Positions 1,574 through 59,898 of a DNA stretch of 64,000 bases are shown piece by piece. A program made the translations under genes and the position numbers. This stretch comes from an uncultured Planctomycetales bacterium. GTDB lineage: Bacteria; Omnitrophota; Gorgyraeia; Zapsychrales; Fredricksoniimonadaceae. Each line of letters opens with the position of its first letter. The first letter of the stretch is position 1. The stretch is from contig CAZFNI010000009.1 in assembly GCA_964520655.1 (NCBI GenBank), forward strand, positions 5,909 through 69,908. Reading direction: 5' to 3'. The notes under the pieces were generated by a model that was not told the DNA's origin, made no database searches, and saw nothing but the letters and a program-made list of their open reading frames with translations.

Positions 1574-1581
1574 GGCCGCCT

Positions 1582-2589: not shown

Positions 2590-2594
2590 AGTAT

Positions 2595-6953: not shown

Positions 6954-6967
6954 GGTAAGCTCTTTTT

Positions 6968-8967: not shown

Positions 8968-9070
8968 GATGTCTCCTATCTTGAGTATCTATAACCAGTT
9001 AGCAGTGACAAGAATTTTTCCAAATGGGGATTGTCGTTAATAAAAATAATAACGGATTTAAAGCGGGGTT

Positions 9071-9099
9071 AATATAGCAGAGAAAATTTACACGGTCAA
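9071..9099 (-). promoter_or_regulatory. candidate sigma70 promoter of the pur operon
   Basis: Minus-strand TTGACC, 17-nt spacer, TATATT. It lies about 110 nt upstream of the purB ATG, and AGGAGA sits just before the ATG. Confidence 0.4.
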
Positions 9100-9111
9100 C
9101 TAAAAAAAACG

Positions 9112-9165
9112 GGCCAAAAAACCATAAAAAGCCGCAAGTCGTTAAATTACAATGACTTGCGGCTT
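9112..9165 (-). terminator. rho-independent terminator after the DUF2059 gene
   Basis: 12-bp stem AAGCCGCAAGTC/GACTTGCGGCTT followed on the minus-strand RNA by UUUAUGGUUUUUUGG. Confidence 0.6.
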
Positions 9166-9182
9166 AAATAATCCTGATCTAT

Positions 9183-9809: not shown

Positions 9810-9898
9810 AGATTTTATTTTAGATCTTTCTCTTTATAATACAAATGAAATAACGAAATTCTGGCATCCATTAGTCCTTCTGTGTTAGGATATCGGCC

Positions 9899-41147: not shown

Positions 41148-41556
41148 GATGGGCGGCCTGTATTTGTGTCCGAAGGGTATCGACATCGTTATTAAGGTCA
41201 GCCAAGAATTTCTCTTCCTTGGCAATGGCTTCTTTAAGGTCCATGTTAGGATCAGCCGCAACAGCTGCGATCTCAACGGGTTTCGCTGGTGCTTTAACCA
41301 ATGGCGCCGTATTGGTCTGTACTTCAGAGGCCTTCACCACAGGCTTGCTGCCATCCAGATTATAGCTGCGGCTTAGCTGCTTGATGCGCGCCATCACCCG
41401 TTCGGCTTCCCTGTGGTCGCCCCGCTGGTGCAGCTCCTTGGCATAGGTCAGCATGGTGTCGATCGCCACATCCCGCATAAAGCTGCTTGTCGTTGAAGCC
41501 ATTGCAGTTACGGCTGTAAAAATGGTGAAAATACACGCGATTGTCAGATTTCTCAT
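41140..41556 (-). CDS. small secreted helical protein, translationally coupled to the giant coiled-coil gene
   Basis: Signal peptide. Its stop overlaps the giant gene's start by 8 nt. Confidence 0.5.
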   Translation of the reverse strand: MRNLTIACIFTIFTAVTAMASTTSSFMRDVAIDTMLTYAKELHQRGDHREAERVMARIKQLSRSYNLDGSKPVVKASEVQTNTAPLVKAPAKPVEIAAVAADPNMDLKEAIAKEEKFLADLNNDVDTLRTQIQAAHHE

Positions 41557-41726
41557 ATTCCTTACCTGTTGATATGTAATGGTTTACGTTTCGAGTGTTT
41601 GGCTTATATCAAAATATTGATCTTGTCAACAAAATAATGCTGGAAGTATAACACCCAAACGGGGCATCGTCAAATTTTTAGAAAGGGCTTACCCCGAAAG
41701 AAATACCGCTTCCTGCCCCCTGAAAT

Positions 41727-44297: not shown

Positions 44298-44303
44298 ACA
44301 CCT

Positions 44304-46064
44304 ATGCCCAAAGTAACTCTTCTTTCCCCTGATGTCATTGCCAAGATCGCCGCCGGCGAGGTCGTTGACCGCCCTTCCTCCGTTGTTAAGGAGCTGGTGG
44401 AGAACTCCATTGACGCGCAGGCGACCTCGATCGAGGTACATCTAAAAGACGCCGGCAAAGAACTCATCCGCGTCAAAGACAATGGCAGCGGTATCACCAA
44501 GGGGGACCTGGGCAATATTTTCCAACGCCACGCCACCAGCAAGATCAACAATATCGATGACTTAGAGACCCTTATCTCCATGGGGTTTAGAGGGGAGGCC
44601 CTGTTCTCGATCGCCGCGGTCTCGGATGTGACAGTGGAAAGCCAGTCGCAAGGCTCCAAAGAATCCTGGCTGCTGCATTTGCGCGCAGGCAAACGGCTGC
44701 AGCTTGAACCATGTGCCGCCAAAGGCCACGGGACCGAAATAAAAGTATCTGAATTATTTTTCAATACCCCGGCACGCCGCAAATTCCTCAAAAGCAGCAC
44801 ATCGGAACTCAACCAATGCGTCCATACGCTGCTCAATTACGGCCTGCTGTATCCGGATAAACGATTTTTATTGACCCACGCCGGCAAAACACTACTTGAT
44901 CTTAGGCCAGCCCCCAACCTTCAAGACCGTATGGCCGCAGCACTGAACTTAAATACCGCAGACCTCCTGGAAACATCCCAGGATTTTCCTGAGGATAAGA
45001 TCTATATCAAAGCCGTCTTAAGCAATATCAACATCGCCCGGCCCCGCCGGGATATGCAGTATTTCTTTATCAATCGCCGGCCAGTTGAGCACAAATCTCT
45101 GGGATTCACCCTCAATGATGTCTACCGCGCGATCCTGCCGCCGGGCGTTTATCCGGCGTTCTTGATCAGCATACAGCTGGATCCGTCTTGTGTTGATGCC
45201 AACATACACCCGGCTAAAAAAGAAGTGCGCATCCTCACTGAAAGCCGCGTAGTCTCTCTGGTAAGGCATTTGGTCGATTACACGCTCATGCGTTTCGGCG
45301 GGACAAAAAAGCTCGAAGCCGCGCCCGGAGCCCCATCAGCAGTGCTGGAGAATATCTCCTTTGAACAGGGACTGCCCGCTGGGCAGATCATCTATGGCCC
45401 GGGACAAAAACAGCCTGACTTTTCTTTTTCTGCATCCCTCTCCCCCAGGCCCGCCATGCCCGCTGCAGCGCCTGATCTATTTGCCGCCCCTGCGGCCTCG
45501 ATGACTGAGAAATTCTCCCGGGCGCGCTACATCGGATCGTTGAATAATAAATTCCTGTTGTTTGAGGATGGTTCTTCTCTATTATGTGTTGACCAGCACG
45601 CAGCCCAGGAACGCATCATGTTCGAACGCTTCACGCGCCAGATCGAAGACGGCGCGATCGAAGTGCAGCCGCTATTGACCCCCATCCTCATCAAATTATC
45701 CATTGTGGAAGCCATCAGCATTGAAGAGTATGGGAAAAAGTTGGGCGAAGTGGGCATTGAGACCGCCCTGCTCGATGAAGGAACGCTGGCCATACACGCC
45801 CATCCTGTGCTGCTCAAGAACATCGAGTCAGCGGTCAGACTGCTGCTCTCAGGAAATGATATCAATCGTTGTGACCGCAACACCATTGCCCGCAGGGCCT
45901 GCAAGGCCTCGATCACTGCCGGCGACCGGTTAAGCCCGCTTCAAGCAGAGCATCAGCGCAGAGAATTGCTCCAATGCAACGACCCGTTCACCTGTCCGCA
46001 CGGCCGGCCGATCATCATTGAGCTAAGCGACAGCTTTCTAGACAGGCAGTTCTTAAGAACATAA
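44304..46064 (+). CDS. mutL: DNA mismatch repair protein MutL
   Basis: GHKL ATPase N-terminus (AAGEVVDRPSSVVKELVENSIDA) and a MutL C-terminal dimerisation domain. Confidence 0.9.
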   Translation: MPKVTLLSPDVIAKIAAGEVVDRPSSVVKELVENSIDAQATSIEVHLKDAGKELIRVKDNGSGITKGDLGNIFQRHATSKINNIDDLETLISMGFRGEALFSIAAVSDVTVESQSQGSKESWLLHLRAGKRLQLEPCAAKGHGTEIKVSELFFNTPARRKFLKSSTSELNQCVHTLLNYGLLYPDKRFLLTHAGKTLLDLRPAPNLQDRMAAALNLNTADLLETSQDFPEDKIYIKAVLSNINIARPRRDMQYFFINRRPVEHKSLGFTLNDVYRAILPPGVYPAFLISIQLDPSCVDANIHPAKKEVRILTESRVVSLVRHLVDYTLMRFGGTKKLEAAPGAPSAVLENISFEQGLPAGQIIYGPGQKQPDFSFSASLSPRPAMPAAAPDLFAAPAASMTEKFSRARYIGSLNNKFLLFEDGSSLLCVDQHAAQERIMFERFTRQIEDGAIEVQPLLTPILIKLSIVEAISIEEYGKKLGEVGIETALLDEGTLAIHAHPVLLKNIESAVRLLLSGNDINRCDRNTIARRACKASITAGDRLSPLQAEHQRRELLQCNDPFTCPHGRPIIIELSDSFLDRQFLRT

Positions 46065-46101
46065 GCCGAGGGAACCGCTTTCCACAAAACCACCATTTTT
46101 C

Positions 46102-46130
46102 TTGTTCAGCTATCCCCCTTGTGATATATT
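46102..46130 (+). promoter_or_regulatory. candidate promoter of the pilin gene
   Basis: TTGTTC, 17 nt, TATATT, followed by AAGGAG as the SD. Confidence 0.35.
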
Positions 46131-46178
46131 CTATATTAGCTGTCATTATTAATTATTATTATACAAAGGAGATTCGCC

Positions 46179-46577
46179 ATGAAAACAGTACTCAATAAGA
46201 AAGGGTTCACGCTGGTCGAGATCATGATCGTCGTGGCCATCATCGCCCTGCTGGCGGCGATCGCTATCCCGAACCTGCTTCGGGCAAAATTGAATGCCAA
46301 CGATTCCCTGGCTAAATCAACCGTACGCGCGTTATCAACATCCTCAGAATCTTACGCAACCGCGCATAACGGGAACTACCCTACGAATGTGACGTCTTTG
46401 ACAGGCGCCAACCCGGCGTTCTTGAATAACGCCTACTGCGATTCAACCATCAGCGGGTACTTCTATACCTGTACCTTCACCACCAGCACCTACACCCTGT
46501 CAGCGACCCCGGTCACTGTCGGAACAACTGGTACGACCACATACACCATCTCTACGGGTGGTGTGTTAGTCCCATAA
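46179..46577 (+). CDS. type IV pilin / pseudopilin (prepilin-type N-terminal cleavage/methylation domain)
   Basis: KKGFTLVEIMIVVAIIALLAAIAIPN. Confidence 0.8.
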   Translation: MKTVLNKKGFTLVEIMIVVAIIALLAAIAIPNLLRAKLNANDSLAKSTVRALSTSSESYATAHNGNYPTNVTSLTGANPAFLNNAYCDSTISGYFYTCTFTTSTYTLSATPVTVGTTGTTTYTISTGGVLVP

Positions 46578-46603
46578 GCACCACGATCACACGCTGTTAC
46601 CCT

Positions 46604-46635
46604 AAGGCCGCTTGAAAAAGCGGCCTTAGTTTTTT
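46604..46635 (+). terminator. rho-independent terminator after the pilin gene
   Basis: AAGGCCGCTT-gaaa-AAGCGGCCTT followed by AGTTTTTT. Confidence 0.6.
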
Positions 46636-47855
46636 ATCTTCTCCCGCAGACTAAGGAAATACTTCTCTACCGTCATGGAGCTTAAAATACCCGCTGCGAT
46701 GCTGGATATTGTCGTCAGGAGGATGACGATGGTGGGGGGAAGGGTGTGCATCCAGCGCGCCCAGAAGATGATGATCAGGATATGCCACAAATATATGCCG
46801 TAGGAATGACGACCCAGCTGCTGCATCCACGCAAACCGCGTCAGGAAAGAAACACCGAAGAATGCCGCGCTAAGCAAGGCCAGGGACGATAGTTGTCCGA
46901 TGATATTCATATACCAATCACCCCAGTGATAGCCCCATTCGATCACAAAGAACAGCAGAAAATATCCAGTTACGCCGATCCCCCAAAGGAGGCCCCCGGC
47001 CATTTTATTGTTGGGCCAGCCCTTCCAATAAGGCTTTAACACAGCCAGCAGGCACCCCAGGGATAGCGCGCCCAAATGATACATTAACGTAAAATACGGA
47101 TGCGGTGCTTTCAACGGCCAGGTCAACATCGGCTTATCCCAAACGATATACATATATCGTGTTACAGCGCCCAGGCACATGAGCAGCACAAATGCTATTA
47201 TTAAGGCCCTGCGCCTCTGCAGTTCCCCCTGGAAGATCCGGTAAATGACCATGAGCAAGATCGGGCAAAAAACATAGAACTGTTCAAAAATGGCCAGGGT
47301 CCAGGCATGCTCCAGATAGATATTGCGGGGGAAATAATTCTGCAAGAACATCAAATACCGCAAGCCCACCGCCGCGATGTTCACGGGATCTTCCTGTGCC
47401 TGCCATGAAAAAACGACCAGACTGACGATGACCATGAGCGCGTAAGCCGGATAGATCCGCAAGAAACGCCTGCACCAGAACCGAAAGACATCTTTCCAGG
47501 AATGGACATCTGTCAGAAGATTTCGGGTGATCAGAAAGCCACTGATGATCAAGAACAACTGCACCCCCAGGATCCCTTTAAAATTATTGATCATGTGCTT
47601 GATAAGCAAATACACCGGCGAGAGATCAATGTGCAGGTATTGCCAGGACTTAAATAACAGCCAGGAAAGAATAGGGGTATCCCTATCAAACAAATGATAC
47701 AGGTCCAATCCAACGCACATATGGTGGCCCAGGATCATAAGGATCCCCAAAGCCCTAAAACCGTCTAAGAATGGGAATTGTCGTTTTGGGATTTTAGGAG
47801 TGGCATTTGCTTGAAGCATTTGACTCATTGTACGGTATACAGGTAAAAGACGCAA
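46626..47855 (-). CDS. acyltransferase family 3 (OafA/YrhL-like) membrane protein
   Basis: Polytopic, 409 aa, with GFRALGILMILGHH near the N-terminus. Confidence 0.75.
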   Translation of the reverse strand: MRLLPVYRTMSQMLQANATPKIPKRQFPFLDGFRALGILMILGHHMCVGLDLYHLFDRDTPILSWLLFKSWQYLHIDLSPVYLLIKHMINNFKGILGVQLFLIISGFLITRNLLTDVHSWKDVFRFWCRRFLRIYPAYALMVIVSLVVFSWQAQEDPVNIAAVGLRYLMFLQNYFPRNIYLEHAWTLAIFEQFYVFCPILLMVIYRIFQGELQRRRALIIAFVLLMCLGAVTRYMYIVWDKPMLTWPLKAPHPYFTLMYHLGALSLGCLLAVLKPYWKGWPNNKMAGGLLWGIGVTGYFLLFFVIEWGYHWGDWYMNIIGQLSSLALLSAAFFGVSFLTRFAWMQQLGRHSYGIYLWHILIIIFWARWMHTLPPTIVILLTTISSIAAGILSSMTVEKYFLSLREKIKN

Positions 47856-47892: not shown

Positions 47893-50334
47893 TCAGATCA
47901 TGGGATAGGTTATCTCCGGCGGTATTTGCGGCTTGCCCAGCAAAAATCCCTGGCCTGAGGTGACGCCCATATCGATCAAGACCTTTAAATCATCTTCAGT
48001 TTCGATGCCCTCGGCAATAACCCTGGCCTTGCAGCTTTCGATGACGCGTAGCAGCCTCTGGAAACTATAACGTTTGTGCTCCTCCTTGGAGATATTCCAC
48101 ACGATCTTCTTATCGATCTTGACAATGTCCGGCTCTAGCAGGATCAATGTTTCCACCGAACTGCGGCCGAACCCATAATCATCCAGCGCGATCAAGACCC
48201 CTTCCTTCCGCAGTTGTTTGATCGCGGGCAGCAGATAAAGCGGGTCGCCTAAGATCTGCTGTTCATTGAGCTCAAGGCAATAGGTAATGTCCTTACCCGC
48301 GCAAAAAAGGTCCTGCAGCAGGACATCGACCGGGATCTCGACCAATGTCGACGGAAAAATATTAATGTGCACGTTCCTGGCCAGCGGCACGCTTTTGATG
48401 GCATTCAAACAGGTCTTCAAGCACGCGTAATCCACGATCCCCAGCAGGTCCGTGTTGCGGGCAAATGTCAAAAATGTGTCGGGAGAGTGATACCCTTCAT
48501 AGTCCAGGCGCGATAAAAGCTCATACCCTGTTTTTGTTTTGTCCTTTAGATTACAGATCGGCTGAAATGCCGCGTAGAACTTCTTACCCTCCACGAGGAC
48601 TTTCTTGAATTCCGCCGAGGCATCAGGCGTTTTCAAGTCGACCTGTCCCTGTTTGCTTTGATAGGCGATGCGGTTCTTCCCCTGGCCTTTACTTAGATGC
48701 AGCGCCAAATGCAACTTCTGCAGCAGTCCATCAATGGTGATCGGGCCGTCCCCCAACGGTACGACGCCGATGCTGCATGTCGCTGAAATATCTTCTCCAG
48801 AAGGGACGGTGACCATCGCCTGGGAGATCGCGACCCGGATCTTATCCGCGACCATCACCGCTTCCGCTTCACGGCTGTCGATCAGGAGCACCATGAACTC
48901 ATCGCCCCCAACCCTAGCGACATAATCCGTCTGGCGTATCGTCTGGTGGATCTTCTGCGATACAGCCACCAGAATAGCGTCGCCGATCCCATGCCCGTAG
49001 CCGTCATTGATCTGCTTGAAATTATCCAGGTCCAAAAGCAGCACCTGCACACTTAAACCCACACGCTTGTTCATGGTCACGGTCGTCGATAAAATATCCC
49101 CCAACCCTCTGCGGTTGAGCACTCCCGTCAAAGGATCATGCACCGACATCTCGCGTAATTCCTGCGACAGTGACCGCAGCTGCTCCTCCACCTCCTGGCG
49201 CTTGACCACTTCTTTTTCCAGCTCGTCGCGCGAGGCCATGGTCTTTTTTAAATTATTCACCATTTCATCAAAGGTCCGAGATAACTGACCCACCTCATCG
49301 TTGGTGGTCATACCGACCTTATGGTCAAGATTGCCAAGCCCAATGATGCGGACGCCTTTCTGCAGCTTATGGATAGGCCTGGCGATCGAGCGCGCGAACA
49401 CAAAGGAGCTGAAAACGATCATCAGTAAAATGACCAGGCTTATGGAAATAAAAAGAACCCGCATATTCACAACAGGAGCCAACACTTCCGCCATATCGAT
49501 CTGGGTCACGATCCCCCACTCTAAAGACGGGACCGAAGAAAAGACTGAAAGGACTTTCTCTCCTCTATAATCAATATTCTCGCTGATCTCATCAAGCGAT
49601 AAGGCCGGAAGCTCTTTTTTCAGCACCGCATCAGGATCATGCTTGAGCGGGCTGATATGCAAATATTTGCCACCCGGCAATTTCTTGACTAAATATGTTT
49701 CCCCAGTCTTTCCGACGCTGGTGTTGTTGGACAAAAACCCGTAAACAAGCTGCATATCAACGACCAAAACAGCATAACCGCACATCTTGCCATCCGCATC
49801 ATTGACAGCCGTGGTCATGAACACCACCACCGGATGATGCTCATCCGGTTTGGATAATGGATCACTGATCCAGACATCTTCCCTGGCTTTCGCCAGCTCT
49901 TCTGGCGTGAAAATGACCTTATCACGATATTCCCTTAAATGCGCGGGGTCGATACCGAAGACGACCTTGCCTTTTGAGTCCAGCAGCATAATGTCCGCGT
50001 ACTGATAGGAATTCATGAACGCCAGCAGCTGGTCCGTCAGGCGGCCGGCAGCCTTCATATAGGCGAAATTGTAACGGTCCTTGTCGAACTGCTGCAACGT
50101 CGGCAGATTGGTCTTCACATCCAGAAACCCGCCCACGGCTTTGAGATCTTCTTTACGCGAAGCAAAAAATGTTTCCAGACGGTCCTTGTTAAGCGCCGCG
50201 ACAATATTTAAGCGCTCATGGATCTCTTTGGTCAGCTCTTTTTCCGCGCTGTAAAAAAATAAATTAGCCACAATGACGATCGGGATGATCGCCAGGCTTA
50301 AGAACAGGATGGTCAGTCGCGTGAATAAACGCAT
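47893..50334 (-). CDS. Cache-sensor / HAMP / GGDEF / EAL c-di-GMP signalling protein
   Basis: TM, periplasmic domain, TM, HAMP. The GGDEF domain has RVGGDEF. The EAL domain has ELL, DDYGFG and KIDKK variants. Confidence 0.85.
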   Translation of the reverse strand: MRLFTRLTILFLSLAIIPIVIVANLFFYSAEKELTKEIHERLNIVAALNKDRLETFFASRKEDLKAVGGFLDVKTNLPTLQQFDKDRYNFAYMKAAGRLTDQLLAFMNSYQYADIMLLDSKGKVVFGIDPAHLREYRDKVIFTPEELAKAREDVWISDPLSKPDEHHPVVVFMTTAVNDADGKMCGYAVLVVDMQLVYGFLSNNTSVGKTGETYLVKKLPGGKYLHISPLKHDPDAVLKKELPALSLDEISENIDYRGEKVLSVFSSVPSLEWGIVTQIDMAEVLAPVVNMRVLFISISLVILLMIVFSSFVFARSIARPIHKLQKGVRIIGLGNLDHKVGMTTNDEVGQLSRTFDEMVNNLKKTMASRDELEKEVVKRQEVEEQLRSLSQELREMSVHDPLTGVLNRRGLGDILSTTVTMNKRVGLSVQVLLLDLDNFKQINDGYGHGIGDAILVAVSQKIHQTIRQTDYVARVGGDEFMVLLIDSREAEAVMVADKIRVAISQAMVTVPSGEDISATCSIGVVPLGDGPITIDGLLQKLHLALHLSKGQGKNRIAYQSKQGQVDLKTPDASAEFKKVLVEGKKFYAAFQPICNLKDKTKTGYELLSRLDYEGYHSPDTFLTFARNTDLLGIVDYACLKTCLNAIKSVPLARNVHINIFPSTLVEIPVDVLLQDLFCAGKDITYCLELNEQQILGDPLYLLPAIKQLRKEGVLIALDDYGFGRSSVETLILLEPDIVKIDKKIVWNISKEEHKRYSFQRLLRVIESCKARVIAEGIETEDDLKVLIDMGVTSGQGFLLGKPQIPPEITYPMI

Positions 50335-50434
50335 AGGTTACGTGTTAATCCTTGGATATCAACAGCTTATAATAACATACGTCTTTTCTTCTATCCTATA
50401 AGGGTAGCATATTTACACTTAAAAAACAAAACGC

Positions 50435-51385
50435 CTACCCTATTAGCCGGTCTCTTTTGCGGACAAGGTAAAACAAAATGATCAAGACGCATATGGCGAC
50501 GGCTTCACCTGCCAAGCGATCCATATTATCCAATGATCCCATCAACCCTGCGGCCGCATAAACAACATAGTCTCCCAATGCAACAAAAACCATGTTGGGC
50601 AGTTGAAAATACTGCCCCCTCTTAAGGAACAAAAAGAACAAGGCATAAAGGGTCAACGTGAGCGCCGCCTGTATGGGGACAACCCAATGAAGGCTGGCGA
50701 TGATAGCAGGAATAATGAACAGCCCCAACATCGCGCCTCCCACTAACAGGGACCGGCCGTGCCTGATCAGCTTCGTATGCTCTGCCGCCAGATCAATGTC
50801 CCATGCTTTCGGCCATTTGCGCGCGATGACGATCAACACAATGATAAGCGCAGCGAAGATGAATAAATAAACCGGATCCGTTCCTTTATGGACCACCAGA
50901 AAGAACAGGCTGCCTGCGATCAAATAGAAACAAGCTGCTGCCGCCAATCCCGGGCGAGGAAAATCCTTATCCCGGCCCAAAGTGGGATAAAGAAAACGCG
51001 CCAGGATAACAGGATAGAATACCGCGTGGCAGGCGTGCCAGAATATAATGACCATTGCCCACGGCAGATTGACGCCCCACACATCATGCCCCGCGAAAGC
51101 GGCAACAGGGACTTTCTGGTCGGTCATTAACAGGGTTTTCGCCAAAACCCCTTCATTAAAGATCCCATACGCGAGCCCGAGGATAAAAACCCCGACAACG
51201 TTCAGATCCCAGCGGACCATCAACACATAGATCAAATAGACCGGAATACAATACGCAAAAAAAAGGAAGAAATACCCGACGGGCGAGAAAACCTGCGTGA
51301 ATGATTGGTTGGTGGTCAGCGATTCCGTCAATACCGGTATCGCCAAGAATAACCATCCCTGCCTGAAAAACCCCCATCTATTCAT
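50435..51385 (-). CDS. polytopic membrane protein of unknown function
   Basis: About 8 predicted TM segments and no motif I recognise. It is adjacent to a PEP-CTERM protein. Confidence 0.45.
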   Translation of the reverse strand: MNRWGFFRQGWLFLAIPVLTESLTTNQSFTQVFSPVGYFFLFFAYCIPVYLIYVLMVRWDLNVVGVFILGLAYGIFNEGVLAKTLLMTDQKVPVAAFAGHDVWGVNLPWAMVIIFWHACHAVFYPVILARFLYPTLGRDKDFPRPGLAAAACFYLIAGSLFFLVVHKGTDPVYLFIFAALIIVLIVIARKWPKAWDIDLAAEHTKLIRHGRSLLVGGAMLGLFIIPAIIASLHWVVPIQAALTLTLYALFFLFLKRGQYFQLPNMVFVALGDYVVYAAAGLMGSLDNMDRLAGEAVAICVLIILFYLVRKRDRLIG

Positions 51386-51402
51386 TAGCTTTCAGTCTAG
51401 CC

Positions 51403-51440
51403 CAAAGAAAAACCCTCTGCAATGAATTTCATCGCAGAGG
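51403..51440 (-). terminator. rho-independent terminator after the PEP-CTERM gene
   Basis: Minus-strand RNA reads CCCUCUGCGAUGAAAUUCAUUGCAGAGGG followed by UUUUUCUUUGGG. Confidence 0.6.
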
Positions 51441-51463
51441 GCAATATACATCATCGTTAGATA

Positions 51464-51961
51464 CTAACGTTTTCTATTCTTTAAGATCATCCCGGCCAAG
51501 CCCATCCCCATCAAAGACAAAGACATCGGTTCAGGTACAGGGACAGCCGATTCCGTGTCACTGGTTGGGCTTTCGGTTAAAGGTAGTGATCGTGAACCTT
51601 CGTCAATGGGACCGTCACCTGGGATATCTTCAAAAGGGCCATCTTCCCCTGGACCGTCATCTTCGACATGATCCTTGCGGGCTTCTCTCATGAATGGATC
51701 ATCATGATGTGGCTCATCGTCAACTAAACTCGCAGGTTTGAAATCTTCCTCACCGCCATAGCCGGATCCGTCTGGACCGAAGGAATCCCCTTCTTCTGTG
51801 GAATCAGGGACCCAATGCCCAGCCACAAAATGACCTCCGCGGGCATGCTTCTTCTTGAACATCCCCATGGCCCAGGACGGCTGTGAAGTGACAACCATCG
51901 CCAAAACCATTAAAAAAACACTTACTGTGATCTTACGCATTTTGCTCTCCTTGGTGAACAT
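51464..51961 (-). CDS. PEP-CTERM-anchored acidic low-complexity secreted protein
   Basis: Signal peptide and a G/D/E/P/H-rich body. C-terminus is VPEP + MSLSLMGMGLAGMIL + KNRKR, which is the PEP / hydrophobic helix / basic tail layout. Confidence 0.65.
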   Translation of the reverse strand: MFTKESKMRKITVSVFLMVLAMVVTSQPSWAMGMFKKKHARGGHFVAGHWVPDSTEEGDSFGPDGSGYGGEEDFKPASLVDDEPHHDDPFMREARKDHVEDDGPGEDGPFEDIPGDGPIDEGSRSLPLTESPTSDTESAVPVPEPMSLSLMGMGLAGMILKNRKR

Positions 51962-52110
51962 TGTGGAATGTATGCCACATAAAGAAAGCGTTTGCCAGTC
52001 GACGGGGCAAAATAGTTTATAGACGCGCGGAAGGTGCTGGGAAATAGAGGTTTATGACGGGTTTATTCGCTCAAAATAAGAGGCGCGCCGTGTAAATGTC
52101 CCCAAACGCC

Positions 52111-52123
52111 CCCCAACGGGATT
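52111..52123. repeat. degenerate copy of the tRNA-Glu 3' end (13/13 identity to CCCCAACGGGATT)
   Basis: Compared by eye with 56079-56091. Confidence 0.4.
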
Positions 52124-52194
52124 CCCGCGGCATGTCAAAAGGCATAAGCAGGGATCAAATTCAAACTAAATAAGATATTAAGGAAACCACCAAT

Positions 52195-52225
52195 AAAAAA
52201 GACCGCGCAAGGCGGTCATTTTTAT
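52195..52225 (-). terminator. rho-independent terminator downstream of the TIR operon
   Basis: Minus-strand RNA GACCGCCUUGCGCGGUC followed by UUUUUUAUUGG. Confidence 0.5.
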
Positions 52226-52227
52226 TG

Positions 52228-52242
52228 GTAGCCCCAACGGGA
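52228..52242. repeat. 15-bp exact direct repeat of the tRNA-Glu 3' end (GTAGCCCCAACGGGA), candidate attL
   Basis: Identical to 56075-56089. That copy covers the 3' 14 nt of the tRNA plus one flanking base. Confidence 0.65.
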
Positions 52243-52305
52243 GGAAACACCATTGTCGTCGCTGACAAGTGGTTTCACCACCAAAACCACCACCAATTTC
52301 TTGGA

Positions 52306-52842
52306 TTAACCTTTACTCTTTACCCAATCACCTAACTTAGGTATCGCCTTAGGCATTAAGGGGTCGTTTACCCATATATAGTGATCAGTTTTATCAATTA
52401 GAGGATATAAGCTTAAGTACTCTGTACCAATAAAAGAACTGTCGCTTGTATCTAATATTGGTAATATGGCGACAAGATTTCTATAGGCATCAAAATAACC
52501 TAATTCCCAAGGCATCCATTTTGACGAGGGACTGTTCTCAGAGGAGCAATAAATCAAGCTTCTTGATTGTCGCATCCGTTTTCTGAGAATTTCAGCCGTT
52601 TGTTTATTGACCTTATTTCTGTCTAAATTAGTTGGTTCTGATAACCAGTCAACATAACATTTTAAACCAAAGGTGGTTTCGATATAGCTTTTTAGTTTAC
52701 GAATATATTTTTTGTCTGCATAGCTATGTGACAAAAAAATATCGAATGTGTCCCTGTCACTAATGATGGGGCGGGATGCATTTTCAAACAAACGTGTCTC
52801 GTTGGTAGATTCTTCCAACATCGCTTTAGTAAAGAATTTCAT
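52306..52842 (-). CDS. TIR-domain protein (canonical bacterial TIR)
   Basis: 178 aa. FDIFLSHSYADKKYIRKL is a betaA-type motif. SRSLIYCSSENSPSSKWMPWELGYF is the S-x-W-x-x-x-EL motif and includes the conserved Glu. Confidence 0.7.
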   Translation of the reverse strand: MKFFTKAMLEESTNETRLFENASRPIISDRDTFDIFLSHSYADKKYIRKLKSYIETTFGLKCYVDWLSEPTNLDRNKVNKQTAEILRKRMRQSRSLIYCSSENSPSSKWMPWELGYFDAYRNLVAILPILDTSDSSFIGTEYLSLYPLIDKTDHYIWVNDPLMPKAIPKLGDWVKSKG

Positions 52843-52849
52843 ATAGCTC

Positions 52850-53734
52850 CTAATTTATACGTTTTGCACACCACATAGTGTGTTCCCTAGATATTGCATT
52901 CTCAGCATTAATAATATAATCAGAGAAATCTTTTTCATCTTTAACATGTTCACCTAGGCTTTCTATGCAAGTCAATTCGTGCTCAGCCATTGAGTATGCT
53001 TGGCTAAGTTCGCTGTGTTTTTTTATCTGAATCCATGCACAAAATATCGCGACTAAAGTTGTTATGGATCCTATAGGATTAAACCAAACTTCGGGAAAGA
53101 AAATTAGCAATACAGCAACAATAATACCAACAATTTCTCCTCCTAAGATTATGAAAAACCATAAATTCTCCTGGTCTTCATTAAGTTTAGATTTACGTTT
53201 ATACCAGTGTTTTTGATCTATGATCCGTTGAGGAACATAGAGTTTTTTTCTTTCTTCAAGTGAAAGAGCTCTAATCTGCTTCATTCTTACTGATATTTGT
53301 TTCTCGCCATTGGAACAAGAAGCCATTACAGCATGCACTTCGGGATGGGATCTAAATATTTCATCTAATTCTTCAATAAATTTTTTGTCAACGTCTACTG
53401 CGGACAAATTTAATTGATATGGGTGGGCTCCCATAATATAGCGCCATGTAGCTGTCTTAACTGATTCTGCAATGGCTCGTGTGTTAAACCAGTTATCATC
53501 CCACTTTCTAATTTTTATACATAGGCGGGATAAAAAGGCAAAAAAGAGCATCACTGCCGTAATTATGGCTAAAGTAGTGCAGGTTGCTACGTTGGTTAAA
53601 ATGAAACCTCCGGAAACCGCTGCACAAAACACAAAAAAGAATTCTGCTTTAGATGCCTTAAGATAACACTCTTGTTGCTGGATTGACACCGCATCACTTT
53701 TTTGAAATAAGGCAGGGTAGTCCGAAGGCTTCAT
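52850..53734 (-). CDS. membrane protein with two 2TM modules, SLATT-like (tandem SLATT_1/SLATT_3-type architecture is inferred)
   Basis: 294 aa. TM pairs at about 28-68 and 185-225, each preceded by a polar helix and followed by W-x-Y / E-H-E-L-type helices (TATWRYIMG). The gaps to the neighbouring genes are 7 and 10 nt. Confidence 0.4.
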   Translation of the reverse strand: MKPSDYPALFQKSDAVSIQQQECYLKASKAEFFFVFCAAVSGGFILTNVATCTTLAIITAVMLFFAFLSRLCIKIRKWDDNWFNTRAIAESVKTATWRYIMGAHPYQLNLSAVDVDKKFIEELDEIFRSHPEVHAVMASCSNGEKQISVRMKQIRALSLEERKKLYVPQRIIDQKHWYKRKSKLNEDQENLWFFIILGGEIVGIIVAVLLIFFPEVWFNPIGSITTLVAIFCAWIQIKKHSELSQAYSMAEHELTCIESLGEHVKDEKDFSDYIINAENAISREHTMWCAKRIN

Positions 53735-53744
53735 TTTATTCTCC

Positions 53745-54218
53745 TTAAACAGTTGCTAATTCACGATAAAAAGCTTCGTTATAAACGTAATTACCCGAAG
53801 CATTCATTTTGTAATTCTGTATTGCATGTGCGAGTATGCGTGGTGAGAATGGAACAAACACTGCTCCAATATTTTTTATGATAGGGGGACAAGTTTCTTC
53901 TATCATTTGTTTAGAGCCGTCTAGGTTAACTCCAATAATTACACATTTTTTTTCAATTGCGACTTCCGCCTCCCAACGTACATACTTATGTTTGCTTTTA
54001 GTATCTTTGCCAATCAACATAACATATTTACTTGCCATATTGATTCTTTCGCGGCACCTACTCTTGATGTATGCCTCATCTTCAGAACGGATTTCATTTT
54101 CCAACTGGCAATCAGCAAAATCAAAATCAATCTTCTCATTCGCTTTCCAAGCCTGCATTAAACGGTAAAAATGAATATCCGTACTGCTGAAACCTACAAA
54201 GGTTCTTGGTAGTCCCAT
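53745..54218 (-). CDS. ThsB-like TIR-like protein (DUF1863 / MTH538 TIR-like family)
   Basis: 157 aa. TFVGFSSTDIHFYRLMQAW at the N-terminus, then SKYVMLIGKDTKSKHKYVRWEAEVAIEKKCVIIGVNLDG. This matches the V-x-L-I-G-x-x-T…W-V-x-W-E-I…I-I-G-V pattern as I remember it. Confidence 0.55.
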   Translation of the reverse strand: MGLPRTFVGFSSTDIHFYRLMQAWKANEKIDFDFADCQLENEIRSEDEAYIKSRCRERINMASKYVMLIGKDTKSKHKYVRWEAEVAIEKKCVIIGVNLDGSKQMIEETCPPIIKNIGAVFVPFSPRILAHAIQNYKMNASGNYVYNEAFYRELATV

Positions 54219-54291
54219 TTCGCTCTCCTTAAAATTGAAAATTAAATTAAAATTAGTTTTTGATTTGTCTTAGTACTCAAGCCATAAAAAC

Positions 54292-54333
54292 AGCCCTACC
54301 TTTCTGTTTGCTTCGAACTTGCAAGGTAGGGCC
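54292..54333. promoter_or_regulatory. hairpin / operator-like element in the TIR-operon upstream region
   Basis: AGCCCTACCTT … AAGGTAGGGC form an inverted repeat. A third forward copy, AGGCCCTACCC, sits at 54371-54381. On the minus-strand RNA the stem is followed by UGUUUUUAUGG. Confidence 0.4.
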
Positions 54334-54438
54334 TTATGATCTATACTTAGGCTTAAGCAAAAAGCGACTAAGGCCCTACCCGGTCTGATTGTCGTTAGCG
54401 GTGTAACGTGGGGCCAACCACTTACACCGCGTTTCTTT

Positions 54439-55365
54439 TTAAGACATCTGGTCCTTCCCTTCAGCATAAGGTGCGAAAATTATTGAACGCTCAAGGTCAG
54501 CCTCAGCAATAGCCGTTTGGGTTGACCTGAATGCCGTAAAAATGTTTTCCTTTGTCTCCGACGAACAGTTGTTCAAAATTATCCGGACGCTCTTCGATTC
54601 TTTGGCAAGCACTAACTTTAACCCCATACCGCCACCATCGGCTTCCCAGGCAAATTTCCCCAACAATTCTCCGCCAGAATTCTTAAACTTTGACTCATCG
54701 ACCAATATAAAGATGTTATCGGCATTCTCAATCATAGCTGATTTAACAGCGCACTCCGACGAATTATAGGCCAATAACCCATTAGAAAGACTCAATGTGC
54801 TCGCCGCCAGAAATGCCATCTTAGCCCTAAAGGAACGAAAGAATTCCGCCGCCTTGCCCACCAAACACCGTTCTTCATATAAATACCGTCCACCGGTTAG
54901 GTGCAATCGTATGTTGGGAGGGCACGTGTAGTCTGACGCCGCTACATTATTAGTGATCACATTCAAATTTATATCGTTGACCATAGGATGCAACGAAATC
55001 TCGCGGAACAGAATCTGCGTCGTTGACCCGGCATCAAGAAAGATGACGGTGGGTTCACCCTGATTTTCTTCAATAAAATATTTCTCGATTACAAAGTTGG
55101 CGATGGCCTTCTTCTTATCGGCATTGTCTTGAAACCTACGATTAACCGCACAGTCTTTTACGCCGACAATTTTTGACCGAACACCACCCCGCACTTTCAA
55201 AACCAATCCTTCTTGGTGAAGGCGATCAATGTCCTGCCATACCAATTTGATCGAGGGGTACTTGAACTTTTCCATCAATTCTTCGGAGGTTGCCATGGCC
55301 CGAGTGGTCAACTCCTGAAGAATCTGGATCTTCCTTGTATTTAGGACTTCTTTGGAAACACGCAT
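54439..55365 (-). CDS. DeoR/GlpR-family transcriptional regulator
   Basis: N-terminal HTH and the C-terminal IFLDAGSTT motif of the DeoR sensor domain. Confidence 0.7.
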   Translation of the reverse strand: MRVSKEVLNTRKIQILQELTTRAMATSEELMEKFKYPSIKLVWQDIDRLHQEGLVLKVRGGVRSKIVGVKDCAVNRRFQDNADKKKAIANFVIEKYFIEENQGEPTVIFLDAGSTTQILFREISLHPMVNDINLNVITNNVAASDYTCPPNIRLHLTGGRYLYEERCLVGKAAEFFRSFRAKMAFLAASTLSLSNGLLAYNSSECAVKSAMIENADNIFILVDESKFKNSGGELLGKFAWEADGGGMGLKLVLAKESKSVRIILNNCSSETKENIFTAFRSTQTAIAEADLERSIIFAPYAEGKDQMS

Positions 55366-55665
55366 GCCTTACCTCTTAGCAAAAGATTGATCGGAGTGCT
55401 AATATAGCAAGGAATTCTTTATTGTCAAGATTATTTTTGCGGTTATATGTAAAACTTACATAGAATATTCCATAAATACACATATAATATCATATTTTAT
55501 AGAATTATTGAGGGTACTAATAAATCTTGCTGTTGCTCAAAACCTGTCTGGCGCCTTCACTTGTAGCATGAACATCGGGGCTATGATTCGGGGTCTTTGT
55601 AGCCTGTAATGGCCACTATATCCGCTTCTACGCCACTTTCACGAAGCACATCTCCCCCAAATACT

Positions 55666-55962
55666 CTAGATATTTGAATTAACTTTTGGTAATAATCTTT
55701 TCTTTAAAAACGCAAATCCTGATCCCGCCTTAAGATATCGTTCAAAACTTTCAGCCAATACATAGCTTGCAAACGTTATATATGTCTCTACTTTCCACGG
55801 AGCGTAACGCTGACAATACCCTGTTTTTGTACGGTTATGCTCGCCTAAGCGGCGTTGTAGATCTTGGGTCATTCCAATGTATAAACGATTAGGGTCGGTT
55901 TCACTGATAAGAATATAGACGATGTGCATGTGAGTAAACAGGGGAGATTGAATACTTTCCAT
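55666..55962 (-). CDS. GIY-YIG domain protein (small UPF0213-like nuclease family)
   Basis: 98 aa with VYILISETDPNRLYIGMTQDLQRRLGEHN. Confidence 0.7.
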   Translation of the reverse strand: MESIQSPLFTHMHIVYILISETDPNRLYIGMTQDLQRRLGEHNRTKTGYCQRYAPWKVETYITFASYVLAESFERYLKAGSGFAFLKKRLLPKVNSNI

Positions 55963-56075
55963 CGGGGGAAATGGAGCAATGCTTGTATTCTACTTCGCTG
56001 AATACTTACGTGTTCAGCTTCGTAGGAATGTACTCCTGCGAAGCTGACACACGAAAGTGCGTCAGCGTAGCAGAG

Positions 56076-56150
56076 TAGCCCCAACGGGATTTGAACCCGT
56101 GTCTAAAGACTGAGAATCTTTCGTCCTGGACCAGGCTAGACGATGGGGCC
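56076..56150 (-). tRNA. tRNA-Glu(CTC)
   Basis: Hand-folded cloverleaf: acceptor GGCCCCA, D-arm GTCT/GGAC, anticodon stem AAAGA/TCTTT with loop TTCTCAG, T-arm CGGGTTCAAATCCCG. It has a G1:U72 pair, discriminator A, and no encoded CCA. The 5' end is uncertain by ±1. Confidence 0.65.
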
Positions 56151-56231
56151 GTGATGTTCAAATATAACACACCGCGGTTTATCGTCAATAATTTATTGCG
56201 GATACCCTTTGCTCTGATAAAATAAACCGTT

Positions 56232-57416
56232 ATGTCCACCCAGATCGCGATCGGTTTCAGCCAGGCATCAATCGTCAGTGACGCCCTCACGCAGGCCTGC
56301 CTGTCCGTCAAGAACCAGCTAAAGAACAGGAACGCGGATTTTGTCATGGTCCTGGCCTGCTCGTCGCATATCCACCCAGACATCCTGGGAACAGTTTTCA
56401 ATATCCTTAAACCCATGCGGCTGATCGGCTGCTCCACCGCCGGGATCATGCTGACGGAAGGGGTCTTTAACCGCGGGATTGCCATCATCGGCATCACCAC
56501 CCAAGAGATATCATTTGGCATCTCCTCGACCAATCCCTGCGCGCCGACGGAGATGCGTCAGGCTGGCGTGGATTGGGCGCACCGCCTTATCACCGATTCC
56601 CAGGTCACCCACCATGACGGGTGCATCCTTTTTGCCGATCACGCCAACATGATCAACCCATTCTTCATCCTTGGCGCGCAGGAAGTATTGGGGACAAGCT
56701 CCACGCTCTGCGGCACGCTGGCTAGCGACAATTACCAATTCCAGCATTCATCTTTGTTCTTCCAAAAACAGGTCCTGACCCAGGGGATCATCGGACTTAT
56801 CGTCAGCGCGAATAAATTCGCTGTCGGCAACGCCAATGGATTTAAACCGCTGGGCAAACCACGCACCATCACCCGCGCGGAGAAGAACACGATCGTCACG
56901 ATCGACAATCAGCCGGCGGTCCATATCTATAAAGAATTCCTGGGTAAAGACGCTGAAGCACTTAACCGCAACACCTACAGCATGCCCGCGATCCTCTATC
57001 CTTTAGGAATCTTCATTGAAGGACAGCACAGATATTTGATCAAGAATGCCGTTGACATCACTTTGGAGGGGAGTATTGTAGTGACGGGTGAAGTGCCTCA
57101 GGGCGCTGAAGTCCATTTGATGATCGGCAATAAGGATTCCTGCCGGAATTCCGCGATGGAAGCCGCCGCGATCGTCAAGGATGCGCTGGGCGGGCGCCAG
57201 GCCAAGCTTATTTTTGTCATTGAATCCGCCGGCCGGCAAAAGATCCTCAAACACAATGCCGGTATGGAGATCCTGGCCATCAAAGAAGCCCTGGGCTACA
57301 CGACACCTATTATCGGCATGTACAGCTTCGGCGAGATAACCCCGTTATCTCAAGGGGCCAATATCAACAATATCCATTTGCAGAACGGAAGCATCACGAT
57401 CATCGCGATCGACTGA
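56232..57416 (+). CDS. FIST-domain (FIST_N + FIST_C) sensory protein
   Basis: 394 aa beginning IAIGFSQA…ADFVMVLACSSH. Confidence 0.7.
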   Translation: MSTQIAIGFSQASIVSDALTQACLSVKNQLKNRNADFVMVLACSSHIHPDILGTVFNILKPMRLIGCSTAGIMLTEGVFNRGIAIIGITTQEISFGISSTNPCAPTEMRQAGVDWAHRLITDSQVTHHDGCILFADHANMINPFFILGAQEVLGTSSTLCGTLASDNYQFQHSSLFFQKQVLTQGIIGLIVSANKFAVGNANGFKPLGKPRTITRAEKNTIVTIDNQPAVHIYKEFLGKDAEALNRNTYSMPAILYPLGIFIEGQHRYLIKNAVDITLEGSIVVTGEVPQGAEVHLMIGNKDSCRNSAMEAAAIVKDALGGRQAKLIFVIESAGRQKILKHNAGMEILAIKEALGYTTPIIGMYSFGEITPLSQGANINNIHLQNGSITIIAID

Positions 57417-57417
57417 T

Positions 57418-58959
57418 ATGATAGCCTGGTTTGAATCCATACAACTCATTGTCTTCATCACCGTCGGGGTTATCTTCACCGGTATCCTGTTCTATCTGTT
57501 AAGCGCCCTCTCCGGGCGCAACCAGACCATACGCCAGATGCTCGAAGAACATGAAAAACTCATGCGTTCTTTTAATGAACTTGACGAACAAGCCAAGCTC
57601 ATTGTCCGCACCGATCTGGAACTCAACAAAGCCCAGGAAGAGCTCGACAAACGGTTAAACGGCATCAATGCCCTGCAACGGGCCTCCCGGCAGATCGCCC
57701 AGGCATTGAACGAAGCCGAAATATTCCAGCGGCTGGGTCCGGACCTGTTTGAAGAACTCGGGTTCTCGCTTTTGCTCATCGCATCATTTGACGAACATGG
57801 CCCGGCGCGCAAACGCATCAGCCTGAACATCCCTGACGACAAAATTTCCGGGATCCTGAGCCGGTTTGAAAAGGACGATAGGCTAAAAGTCGCCCTCAGC
57901 GAACGGCACACCTTTTCCTCTAACAATGCATCCCGCACCAGCAAAGAAAAGATCATTACTATTTTTGAAGCAGAACATTTTATCCTTGCTCCTATTTATA
58001 CCCAGAACAGCACGACGGGTTTTGTTTTTGTGGGCAACCGCTACAATGCCCCGCCCGTCACGCAGGGCGACGAAGAGCTGATCGGGATCTTAGCCGGCCA
58101 GATCGGACAGAACATCGCCAACGCCCAGTTGTTCGAGAAAGTCTTCCGCTCCTCGCAGGAACTGGAATTAAAGGTCAAGGAACGCACCAAACAATTGGCC
58201 AGCGCGCTGGAACAGGTCAAAGAGATCAGCCAGAAGAAATCTGAATTCATCTCGGCCGTCTCCCACGAGCTGCGTACCCCGTTGACCTCGATCAAAGGCT
58301 ATGCCGCGATCCTTCTGGCAGGCAAGATCGGCGCTATCCCTGACGCTGTCAAGGAGCGCTTAGCCAAGATCAACACCCACTCGGATAATCTGGTTTCCAT
58401 GATCAATAACCTGCTCGACATCGCCCGTATCGAATCCGGCCGCGTTGAACTGAAATTCGACCTAAAATCCGCCAAGGCCATGGTCGACAATGTTGCCGAC
58501 CTTTTGACACCGCAGATCAAGGACAAAGAGATCAAACTGTCTGTCAATCTGCCGCCCAATATCAATACGGTCTATGTCGACCTTTCCCACGCGGAACGCA
58601 TTTTTATCAACCTGATCAATAACGCGATCAAGTTCACCCCCAAAGCCGGAGCCATACAGGTCTCGGCCTCCTCGGTGATCGATAAAGGGTACGCGACATT
58701 TTATGTCACCGACACCGGGATCGGCATCGCACCCGATGATGCAAAAAAACTTTTCGATGAATTCTTCAGGGTGGATAACGAGATCAACCAGAACGTCAAA
58801 GGGACGGGGCTTGGGTTGTCCCTGGCCAAGAACATCGTCGAGGCCCACCGCGGCACGATCCATGTCAAAAGCCAGGTCGGCAGCGGCACAACATTCTCTT
58901 TCACCCTGCCCACGACTAAAGAAGCTTATGAATCCGCCGGCTATAAGACCGCCGCGTAG
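57418..58959 (+). CDS. sensor histidine kinase (TM, coiled coil, GAF/PAS-like region, HisKA, HATPase)
   Basis: H-box ISAVSHELRTPLTSIKGY, N-box NLINNAIKFT, G-box GTGLGLSLAKNIV. Confidence 0.85.
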   Translation: MIAWFESIQLIVFITVGVIFTGILFYLLSALSGRNQTIRQMLEEHEKLMRSFNELDEQAKLIVRTDLELNKAQEELDKRLNGINALQRASRQIAQALNEAEIFQRLGPDLFEELGFSLLLIASFDEHGPARKRISLNIPDDKISGILSRFEKDDRLKVALSERHTFSSNNASRTSKEKIITIFEAEHFILAPIYTQNSTTGFVFVGNRYNAPPVTQGDEELIGILAGQIGQNIANAQLFEKVFRSSQELELKVKERTKQLASALEQVKEISQKKSEFISAVSHELRTPLTSIKGYAAILLAGKIGAIPDAVKERLAKINTHSDNLVSMINNLLDIARIESGRVELKFDLKSAKAMVDNVADLLTPQIKDKEIKLSVNLPPNINTVYVDLSHAERIFINLINNAIKFTPKAGAIQVSASSVIDKGYATFYVTDTGIGIAPDDAKKLFDEFFRVDNEINQNVKGTGLGLSLAKNIVEAHRGTIHVKSQVGSGTTFSFTLPTTKEAYESAGYKTAA

Positions 58960-58968
58960 AAAGACAAT

Positions 58969-59898
58969 ATGCGTAAACAAAAGATCCTGATCATTGATGA
59001 TGATTCCGACATCTTAGACGTCTTGAACTTAAGCCTTTCCGAACATTTCACCATTTTCCAGGCGCACAACGGCAAAGAAGGTCTGGAACTGGTGCGCTCC
59101 AAAGTCCCGGACCTTGTCATCACCGACTACATGATGCCTGTGCTTAATGGACCGCAATTCCTGCGCGAACTGCGCAAAGACGTCCTGCTACGCCACCTTC
59201 CGGTCATCATGCTGACGGGAAAAGGCGATACCAAGGACATGGTCACCGGCATCGAAGCGGGAGCGGATGACTATATCGTCAAACCGTTCGAACCGGAAGC
59301 GCTCCTGGCGCGTATCAAGATGATCTTAAACCGCACCATGCGCTCGCTGGACGCCAATCCCCTGACAAGACTTCCTGGAAACACCTCCATCATGGACGAG
59401 ATCCAGAACTATATTGATTCCGGGACACTGTTCGCCGTTGGCTACGCTGACCTTGATAAATTCAAGGTCTATAATGATAAATATGGATTTGAAAAAGGCG
59501 ACGAGGTCATCCGCACCACAGCGCGGGTCATTGTTGAAGCCACCCAGAAGATCACCAACGACAAAGGTTTCGTCGGACATATCGGCGGGGACGATTTTGT
59601 ATTCATCTGCGAGGACAAGTTCGCCGACTTAGTCAGCCAATCCATCATTGATGCATTCGACGCGGCGGCCCCAGGTTTCTATAACGACGAGGATCGCGCG
59701 GCGGGATTTATCCTGGGAAAAGACCGCCAGGGCAATGAAACAAAAGCAGGGTTGGTATCCATTTCGATCGGGATCGTCAGCAACCGCGACTCCAATATCA
59801 CTCACGTGGCCCAGATCGGCGAATTCGGAGCAGAATTAAAGAAATTCGCCAAGAATGTTTCCAAAAGCAATTTCGTGCGCAACCAAAGAAAGAATTAA
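58969..59898 (+). CDS. response regulator: receiver + degenerate GGDEF domain (GGDDF)
   Basis: REC (ILIIDDDSD…ITDYMMP) and a GGDEF fold with HIGGDDFVF. Confidence 0.8.
   Translation: MRKQKILIIDDDSDILDVLNLSLSEHFTIFQAHNGKEGLELVRSKVPDLVITDYMMPVLNGPQFLRELRKDVLLRHLPVIMLTGKGDTKDMVTGIEAGADDYIVKPFEPEALLARIKMILNRTMRSLDANPLTRLPGNTSIMDEIQNYIDSGTLFAVGYADLDKFKVYNDKYGFEKGDEVIRTTARVIVEATQKITNDKGFVGHIGGDDFVFICEDKFADLVSQSIIDAFDAAAPGFYNDEDRAAGFILGKDRQGNETKAGLVSISIGIVSNRDSNITHVAQIGEFGAELKKFAKNVSKSNFVRNQRKN

Follow-up and report, generated by a model that had tools for sequence, protein, structure and literature searches.

Cis-mobilizable elements (CIMEs) are flanked by att sites, have no integration or transfer genes of their own, are thought to be moved by the integrase of a related element, and form tandem arrays. 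Here we describe an islet with this structure in a 64-kb stretch of contig CAZFNI010000009.1 from the uncultivated phylum Omnitrophota (the whole stretch is called the window below). The islet was inserted at the 3' end of a tRNA-Glu(CTC) gene, carries five genes, all on the tRNA strand, and is closed at its far end by a conserved 72-nt element. Like a CIME, it has att repeats at both ends and lacks integration and transfer genes, and units closed by the same element occur elsewhere in tandem arrays. However, the units described here measure 0.6 to 3.8 kb, have one conserved arm in common, and are found phylum-wide at one tRNA, and no helper element or integrase is known for them.

Tycheposons of Prochlorococcus offer a second comparison. 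In the part of the published account that we draw on, they target tRNA genes, their serial integrations are split by partial tRNA copies, remnants are found, and the cargo serves defence or adaptation (bioRxiv 10.1101/2020.12.28.424599). The tRNA targeting, serial stacking, remnants, and defence or adaptation cargo are all features that the Omnitrophota units have in common with tycheposons as that part presents them. However, it defines tycheposons by the presence of replication genes and of a recombinase, tyrosine or serine, of their own, whereas the window islet and the other element-closed units show none, and a conserved 57-nt arm outside the tRNA sequence is not among the features described there. 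The same gap separates the islet from tRNA-targeted islands at large. Insertion at the 3' end with the tRNA regenerated, a distal repeat, and an empty site in a relative are all present, but a Pfam search of the five genes, and Pfam and PDB searches of positions 55517-55650, found no integrase or recombinase gene.

The cargo also has a described counterpart. The combination of TIR and SLATT proteins defines type VII Thoeris, which signals through cyclic ADP-ribose (bioRxiv 10.64898/2025.12.03.692087). In the islet, ThsB-type TIR genes likewise adjoin a SLATT membrane effector, with the differences that two different ThsB genes surround the effector, a DeoR gene is adjacent, and the host belongs to Omnitrophota. 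By its gene content, the ThsB-SLATT-ThsB set matches type VII Thoeris and is a predicted anti-phage system.

A sister strain carries the empty site

From its letters alone, the window had been read as holding an AT-rich islet between att-like repeats at the tRNA-Glu 3' end, integrated site specifically and left without an integrase, and most of this sequence-only reading held up. A search of the whole 64-kb window found exactly two copies of the 15-mer GTAGCCCCAACGGGA, at the positions given for them, and no further match with up to two mismatches (chance expectation, 0.06). ARAGORN and the Rfam tRNA model (tRNA-Glu at 56076-56150, 59 bits; one of three tRNA genes in the window) agree that the second copy is the 3' 14 nt of the tRNA plus 1 nt. 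The interval 52243-56074 has a GC content of 39.6%, compared with 50.4% for the remainder of the window, and GC drops to 0.35-0.39 across 52250-54250; the parts of the islet differ (Thoeris genes, 36.5%; DeoR gene, 45.1%; GIY-YIG unit, 42.9%). The listed content of two TIR genes around a 2TM gene, a DeoR regulator, and a GIY-YIG gene was accurate by Pfam and PADLOC (Table 1). No recombinase family was found by Pfam in the five islet genes, and none was among the 25 of 44 families listed for the other open reading frames (ORFs) of the window.

Exact-protein look-ups of the FIST, SLATT, and PEP-CTERM proteins returned no match. A FIST protein 99% identical to that of the window (P0105) is encoded on five contigs. 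In the sister strain L035 (L numbers are our handles for loci), positions 1-1437 align with window 50806-52242 at 97.7% identity and positions 1423-5223 align with window 56075-59875 at 99.05% identity. Both alignments share exactly the 15-mer, of which L035 has a single copy. The tRNA-Glu sequence of L035 is identical to that of the window, and the gene directly abuts the hairpin terminator (window 52189-52229) and the PEP-CTERM side, which is the single-repeat empty site that the sequence-only reading had predicted for a relative. Thus, recombination within GTAGCCCCAACGGGA brought in the 3,847-bp cassette, regenerating the tRNA unchanged and duplicating the 15-mer. An assembly artefact is unlikely because assembly k-mers are longer than the 15-bp repeat and because L035 has single-nucleotide polymorphisms on both sides. 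The occupied state is fixed in this strain, and contigs from four other sequencing runs are 100% identical to the occupied window.

A third allele has the same flanks. On L032, a 578-kb contig of a metagenome-assembled genome (MAG), a different 8.35-kb island occupies positions 1493-9843 and is bounded by the direct repeat ATTGGTAGCCCCA, whose overlap with the window repeat is GTAGCCCCA. This island encodes a 517-aa large serine recombinase (Resolvase, Recombinase, and Zn_ribbon_recom domains), and among its cargo are genes for a KAP NTPase and for PDC-S31, a defence candidate. The recombinase ORF crosses the junction into the tRNA, so that its final 12 codons are tRNA encoded, and the presumed original tail (EGFTLNQILQEIENIFRFKDLVHLPVEVK and a stop codon) is found at the island's distal end, which places attP within the recombinase gene. 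A tblastn search of the window for a remnant of this recombinase matched only the 12 tRNA-encoded residues. With L035 empty, the window holding the islet, and L032 holding a serine-recombinase island, there are therefore three states at one site in one Omnitrophota species. By sequencing run, DRR783842, DRR783857, SRR16481186, and SRR32910815 have the occupied state, SRR35242012 the empty one, and SRR26835473 the serine-recombinase island. We also noted that the far-side flank of the islet is 97.7 to 98.0% identical across these strains, versus 99.05 to 99.4% on the tRNA/FIST side (L035 and L032).

The same comparison bears on a degenerate third copy of the repeat, which had been taken as a sign of serial occupation of the site. 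The 13-mer CCCCAACGGGATT is indeed present, but L035 keeps 12 of its 13 nt at the empty site (the L032 site is mutated). It is therefore older than the islet and belongs to the backbone; although possibly the scar of an old event, it is uninformative on the arrival of the islet.

Table 1. Features of the islet and its borders in the window
Feature	Position	Strand	Basis or remark
tRNA-3'-like 13-mer	52111-52123	-	CCCCAACGGGATT; equals tRNA positions 56079-56091
Bidirectional intrinsic terminator hairpin	52189-52229	.	native tRNA-Glu terminator; islet now between
Conserved 72-nt element	52226-52297	-	TTGGTGGTG x2, N8, CAGCGACGAYRATGG, N7, TCCNGTTGGGGCTAY; nhmmer E=1.7e-20
Distal 15-bp repeat copy, attR-like core	52228-52242	-	sequence match
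Inserted segment, 3,847 bp	52243-56089 (equivalently 52228-56074)	-	missing from sister strain L035
ThsB-type TIR protein, 178 aa	52306-52842	-	Pfam ThsB_TIR and TIR_2; PADLOC ThsB 1e-51
SLATT_3 + SLATT_1 membrane effector, 294 aa, ThsH-like	52850-53734	-	Pfam 1.4e-35, 1e-31
Second ThsB-type TIR protein, 157 aa	53745-54218	-	Pfam ThsB_TIR 4.7e-16; PADLOC ThsB 1e-41
Terminator-like hairpin between DeoR and Thoeris genes	54286-54333	-	GCCCTACCTT...AAGGTAGGGC then TGTTTTT, read from sequence
DeoR-family regulator, 308 aa	54439-55365	-	Pfam DeoRC 1.1e-26, HTH_DeoR
Promoter-like site of DeoR gene	55401-55428	-	promoter scan 11/12
Stretch of ~130 nt after GIY-YIG stop	55517-55650	-	common to L015 710-579, not L024/L025; pairwise alignment
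Small GIY-YIG nuclease	55666-55962	-	Pfam GIY-YIG 6.9e-13
Hairpin-rich GIY-YIG leader, starts directly after tRNA end	55963-56074	-	homologous to L015, L024, L025 leaders
Proximal repeat copy	56075-56089	-	last 14 nt of tRNA-Glu + 1 nt
tRNA-Glu(CTC)	56075-56150	-	intact; ARAGORN
Promoter-like site upstream of tRNA-Glu	56161-56188	-	promoter scan: TTGACG, 16-nt spacer, TATATT, with TG

A 72-nt element closes the islet and recurs in other Omnitrophota loci

The 15-bp repeat is real, but it is not the bare att-like scar that it had been taken for; it is the tip of a 72-nt element borne by the insert. Its parts are a pair of direct TTGGTGGTG repeats lying 12 bp apart, another invariant block, and the tRNA-shared core, and its tRNA-strand consensus is TTGGTGGTGGATTTGGTGGTGAAAC, N8, CAGCGACGATGATGG, N7, TCCGGTTGGGGCTAY. 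Its 57 non-tRNA nucleotides (52243-52297) are missing from L035 and L032, and this arm therefore arrived with the insert. Beyond the copy in L009, a degenerate pattern scan of metagenome contigs and an nhmmer profile yielded copies in L012 (three copies), L013, L015, L017, L019, and L025. These nine further copies have nhmmer E values of 1e-14 to 3e-22 and, with that of the window, make ten copies on eight metagenomic or MAG contigs. In L009, a 13-nt tRNA-Glu-end repeat of its own encloses four genes unrelated to those of the window, and 62 nt inside that islet, beside the repeat, are 75% identical to window 52229-52290.

We read the element as a DNA site because it showed no conserved fold, Rfam match, start or conserved stop codon, codon periodicity, or peptide match. 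As an RNA gene it was rejected, with no Rfam match and no conserved fold on either strand (RNAalifold gave -8.6 and -2.4 kcal/mol for the two strands and no supported helices). Readings of it as a small protein gene or as a recombinase-gene tail were also rejected, since no frame has an ATG start or a conserved stop; the plus-strand frame is interrupted by stop codons in three of the eight copies translated, and variation across the copies has no codon periodicity. The 35-aa plus-strand peptide had no match among 1.84 billion representative proteins, a null result that is weak, given the short query and how seldom such tails fall within called genes. In its layout, the element resembles the arm and core of a tyrosine-integrase attP, and we infer a comparable role from this analogy. 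Two other ideas were discarded. Counts of GGTGGTGG, considered as a Chi-like motif, were near the base-composition expectation, and two pattern scans of viral contigs for a phage origin gave no match.

Element-closed units carry different cargo at the same tRNA

Islets at the tRNA-Glu of relatives, which the sequence-only reading had proposed to look for, were found in L009, L019/L012, and L024. The order in L019 is FIST, tRNA-Glu(CTC), antitoxin plus RelE, element, and terminator; in L009 it is tRNA-Glu, four metabolic genes, and element. L012 extends the L019 locus by a further two copies of the element and by a single serine-recombinase-tail type core, and up to three element copies stand in tandem. 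At L012 3679-3775, a remnant of an L032-type serine-recombinase tail (GFTLNQILQEIENIFKFKDLV) follows a tRNA-Glu-like core. Because this remnant sits within the L012 array, both element types stack at tRNA-Glu. L025 has three tRNA-Glu-like cores separating an MBOAT unit, a GIY-YIG unit, and an element-closed toxin-antitoxin unit.

The toxin-antitoxin units of L019 and L025 are ~75% identical over a span that opens ~55 nt before the antitoxin start and closes with the final base of the core, and the sequences beyond the core are unrelated. Since the homology ends exactly at the core end, the same kind of unit has been placed in two contexts. In the ORF and gene lists examined, element-closed cargo genes are nearly all on the tRNA strand, and in the window all islet genes are co-oriented with the promoter-like site upstream of tRNA-Glu (56161-56188). 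No recombinase was noted in the element-closed units, most of which lie on short contigs with ORFs only partly scanned against Pfam.

A GIY-YIG mini-unit lies next to the tRNA

The part of the islet nearest the tRNA has relatives of its own. Window 56074 to 55517 is homologous to L015 1165 to 579 (70% identity) over the leader, the GIY-YIG ORF, and ~130 further nt. Members are window 55517-56074 (minus strand), L015 579-1165, L024 4365-4882, L025 3788-4200, L027 9899-10300, L030 9855-10264, and L037 16522-16806. In Omnitrophota, GIY-YIG units lie immediately 3' of tRNA-Glu, tRNA-Asp, tRNA-Ser, and tRNA-Leu genes. Because related units follow several tRNAs, we regard the GIY-YIG unit as a separate tRNA-3'-end family stacked on the DeoR and Thoeris unit. 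The L024 unit follows the tRNA-Glu end and is itself followed by a second, direct copy of that end, and in L027 the tRNA 3' end recurs behind the unit as an inverted copy of 30 nt. The likely start of the GIY-YIG protein is at 55929 because homologues are ~80 aa long. There are 104 homologues, most of them on contigs of <2 kb, which suggests that the mini-unit is a repeat. In the leader, compensatory changes occur in the inner hairpins and the outer stem is TCTnCTTCGC...GCGAAGnAGA; no Rfam family matched the mini-unit. Another small insertion at an Omnitrophota tRNA end is seen in L030, where the tRNA-Arg(TCG) 3' end and flank (~29 nt) are duplicated ~130 nt downstream (9589-9620 and 9718-9746).

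The ~130 nt after the GIY-YIG stop codon were considered as an integrase remnant. Translated on the tRNA strand, 55517-55650 and L015 579-710 contain ITGHKDPESFRIYVYATSEG, with a frameshift in the window. Pfam returned 0 families, a word search gave nothing, and the sole PDB phmmer match was unrelated (E=0.35), and joining the stretch to the reading frame of the 72-nt element again gave no recombinase signal. This candidate was therefore rejected.

The flank on the FIST side is ancestral

Relatives of the flanking FIST protein were found only in Candidatus Omnitrophota MAGs. The tRNA-Glu(CTC) gene is divergent from an operon of FIST, histidine kinase, and GGDEF genes in 7 of 10 loci, and the FIST side is therefore ancestral. 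L002 (FIST identity, 71%) is syntenic over window 40814-47787 and 56074-59898, and the 8.2 kb between these blocks in the window is unrelated to the 2.8 kb of L002. In L002, L004-L007, L037, and L040, tRNA-Glu stands beside FIST with no element, but these loci are too distant to serve as empty sites. The stretch from the acyltransferase to tRNA-Glu (window 47893-52227) differs across Omnitrophota species. In the window it holds GGDEF-EAL, membrane protein, and PEP-CTERM genes at a host-like GC of 0.497, in L002 a secretin-like and a DUF1016 gene take their place (7037-9840), and L003 has neither the tRNA nor intervening genes (8144-8194).

Probable mobilization in trans and its alternatives

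Taken as a whole, these observations are probably best explained by a nonautonomous cassette that is moved in trans by a site-specific recombinase. The 72-nt element would be the cis-acting recombination site, equivalent to the P arm of attP, and its two TTGGTGGTG repeats would be candidate arm-type binding sites. The recombinase would be supplied from elsewhere in the genome or by a related element, and each new cassette would enter at the tRNA core, displacing its predecessors outward. In structure, the islet would be a composite, with the GIY-YIG mini-unit beside the tRNA and then the DeoR and type VII Thoeris unit, which ends in the 72-nt element. We favour mobilization in trans over decay because small recombinase-less units recur.

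Several observations weigh against this explanation. No recombinase acting on the element was identified and no circular or excised form was seen, and most element copies are on short metagenomic contigs, where a recombinase could lie just outside. A tRNA is on the same contig for only 3 of the 10 copies (the window, L009, and L019), and the L009 core has CCTG where its tRNA has CCGG, so the match between core and resident tRNA is not universal. Three of the four tRNA-like cores of L012 are followed by similar terminator hairpins in the tRNA sense, ~80% alike (L012 ~260-311, 2440-2494, 3620-3678, and 5950-6005). Simple serial integration predicts a terminator at the outermost core only, unless each unit begins with its own. 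Finally, by eye the ~130 nt at 55517-55650 resemble the catalytic end of a tyrosine recombinase (GH-x8-Y spacing), which would fit a decayed autonomous element.

Such decay is the strongest alternative, although we consider it unlikely. An autonomous island would have lost its own integrase after tRNA-targeted integration, for example, at the GIY-YIG entry, and would now be immobile. Tycheposon islands offer examples of degenerate elements next to partial tRNA copies (bioRxiv 10.1101/2020.12.28.424599). At the Omnitrophota site itself, L012 keeps the L032-type serine-recombinase tail without a recombinase, and such decay therefore does occur there; the GH-x8-Y spacing is also visible in L015 710-579. 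However, the searches of 55517-55650 described above gave no recombinase signal, a recombinase was seen beside none of the ten element copies, and a 0.6-kb toxin-antitoxin unit with the same boundaries in two genomes is not expected from independent decay.

A homing mechanism is considerably less probable. In it, the GIY-YIG nuclease would cut empty tRNA 3' ends, and double-strand-break repair would then copy in the islet. In both the window and L024 the GIY-YIG unit directly adjoins the tRNA, related units directly follow tRNA-Asp, tRNA-Ser, and tRNA-Leu, the L024 unit is itself bounded by tRNA-end copies, and T4 SegB is reportedly a GIY-YIG homing nuclease within a tRNA gene cluster. However, element-closed units without a GIY-YIG gene exist (L019/L012 and L009), a repeat of 15 bp is too short to make recombinational repair an obvious route, and by Pfam the 80-aa GIY-YIG protein is a catalytic domain only, with no DNA-binding domain.

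That nothing was inserted, with the repeat and element being native host features (a small gene or RNA) and the empty allele arising by deletion between repeats, is scarcely credible and is largely refuted by the L035 and L032 comparison, for although the element is conserved across distant Omnitrophota and one frame of the minus strand stays open in every copy checked, both strains lack the whole 57-nt arm, which is therefore not a core host gene, the element has none of the coding or folding signals looked for above, the cargo between tRNA and element is unrelated across genomes, and the third allele with its own recombinase means that site-specific traffic occurs here.

DISCUSSION

Mobilization in trans invites comparison with two further systems. 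Large-serine-recombinase tRNA islands are represented at this very site, since the L032 island uses the same tRNA-Glu 3' end with an overlapping repeat. However, L032 carries its recombinase, with attP inside the gene, and its arms are unrelated to the 72-nt element. Integron cassettes are likewise small, co-oriented units with a recombination-site-like closing element of ~60 to 140 nt, stacked at a fixed entry site, and both often have toxin-antitoxin and defence genes as cargo. Co-oriented, site-closed cassettes are stacked at one entry in L019/L012 (three elements) and L025 (three cores). In contrast to integrons, there is no IntI by the entry site, whose neighbour is, phylum-wide, the operon of FIST, histidine kinase, and GGDEF genes; an attC-like imperfect palindrome and a conserved fold are both missing from the element; and the entry site is a tRNA 3' end.

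We put forward only tentatively, as a possibility that we doubt more than we believe, an integron-like cassette platform of Omnitrophota at the tRNA-Glu(CTC) 3' end, unrelated to IntI/attC, in which one recombinase encoded elsewhere would capture, stack, and exchange cassettes. Its small, recombinase-less units may include toxin-antitoxin pairs, Thoeris, enzymes, and secreted proteins, each closed by the 72-nt site.

The three alleles at one tRNA site in one species cleanly document a polymorphism in which a defence system was recently gained or lost within an uncultivated phylum, and the 72-nt element is a recurring end mark of recombinase-less cassettes. If a recombinase acting in trans does recognize the element, Omnitrophota would have an integron-like capture of cassettes built from different parts, and Omnitrophota metagenomes could be searched for mobile cargo, new defence systems among it, with the element as a simple sequence tag.

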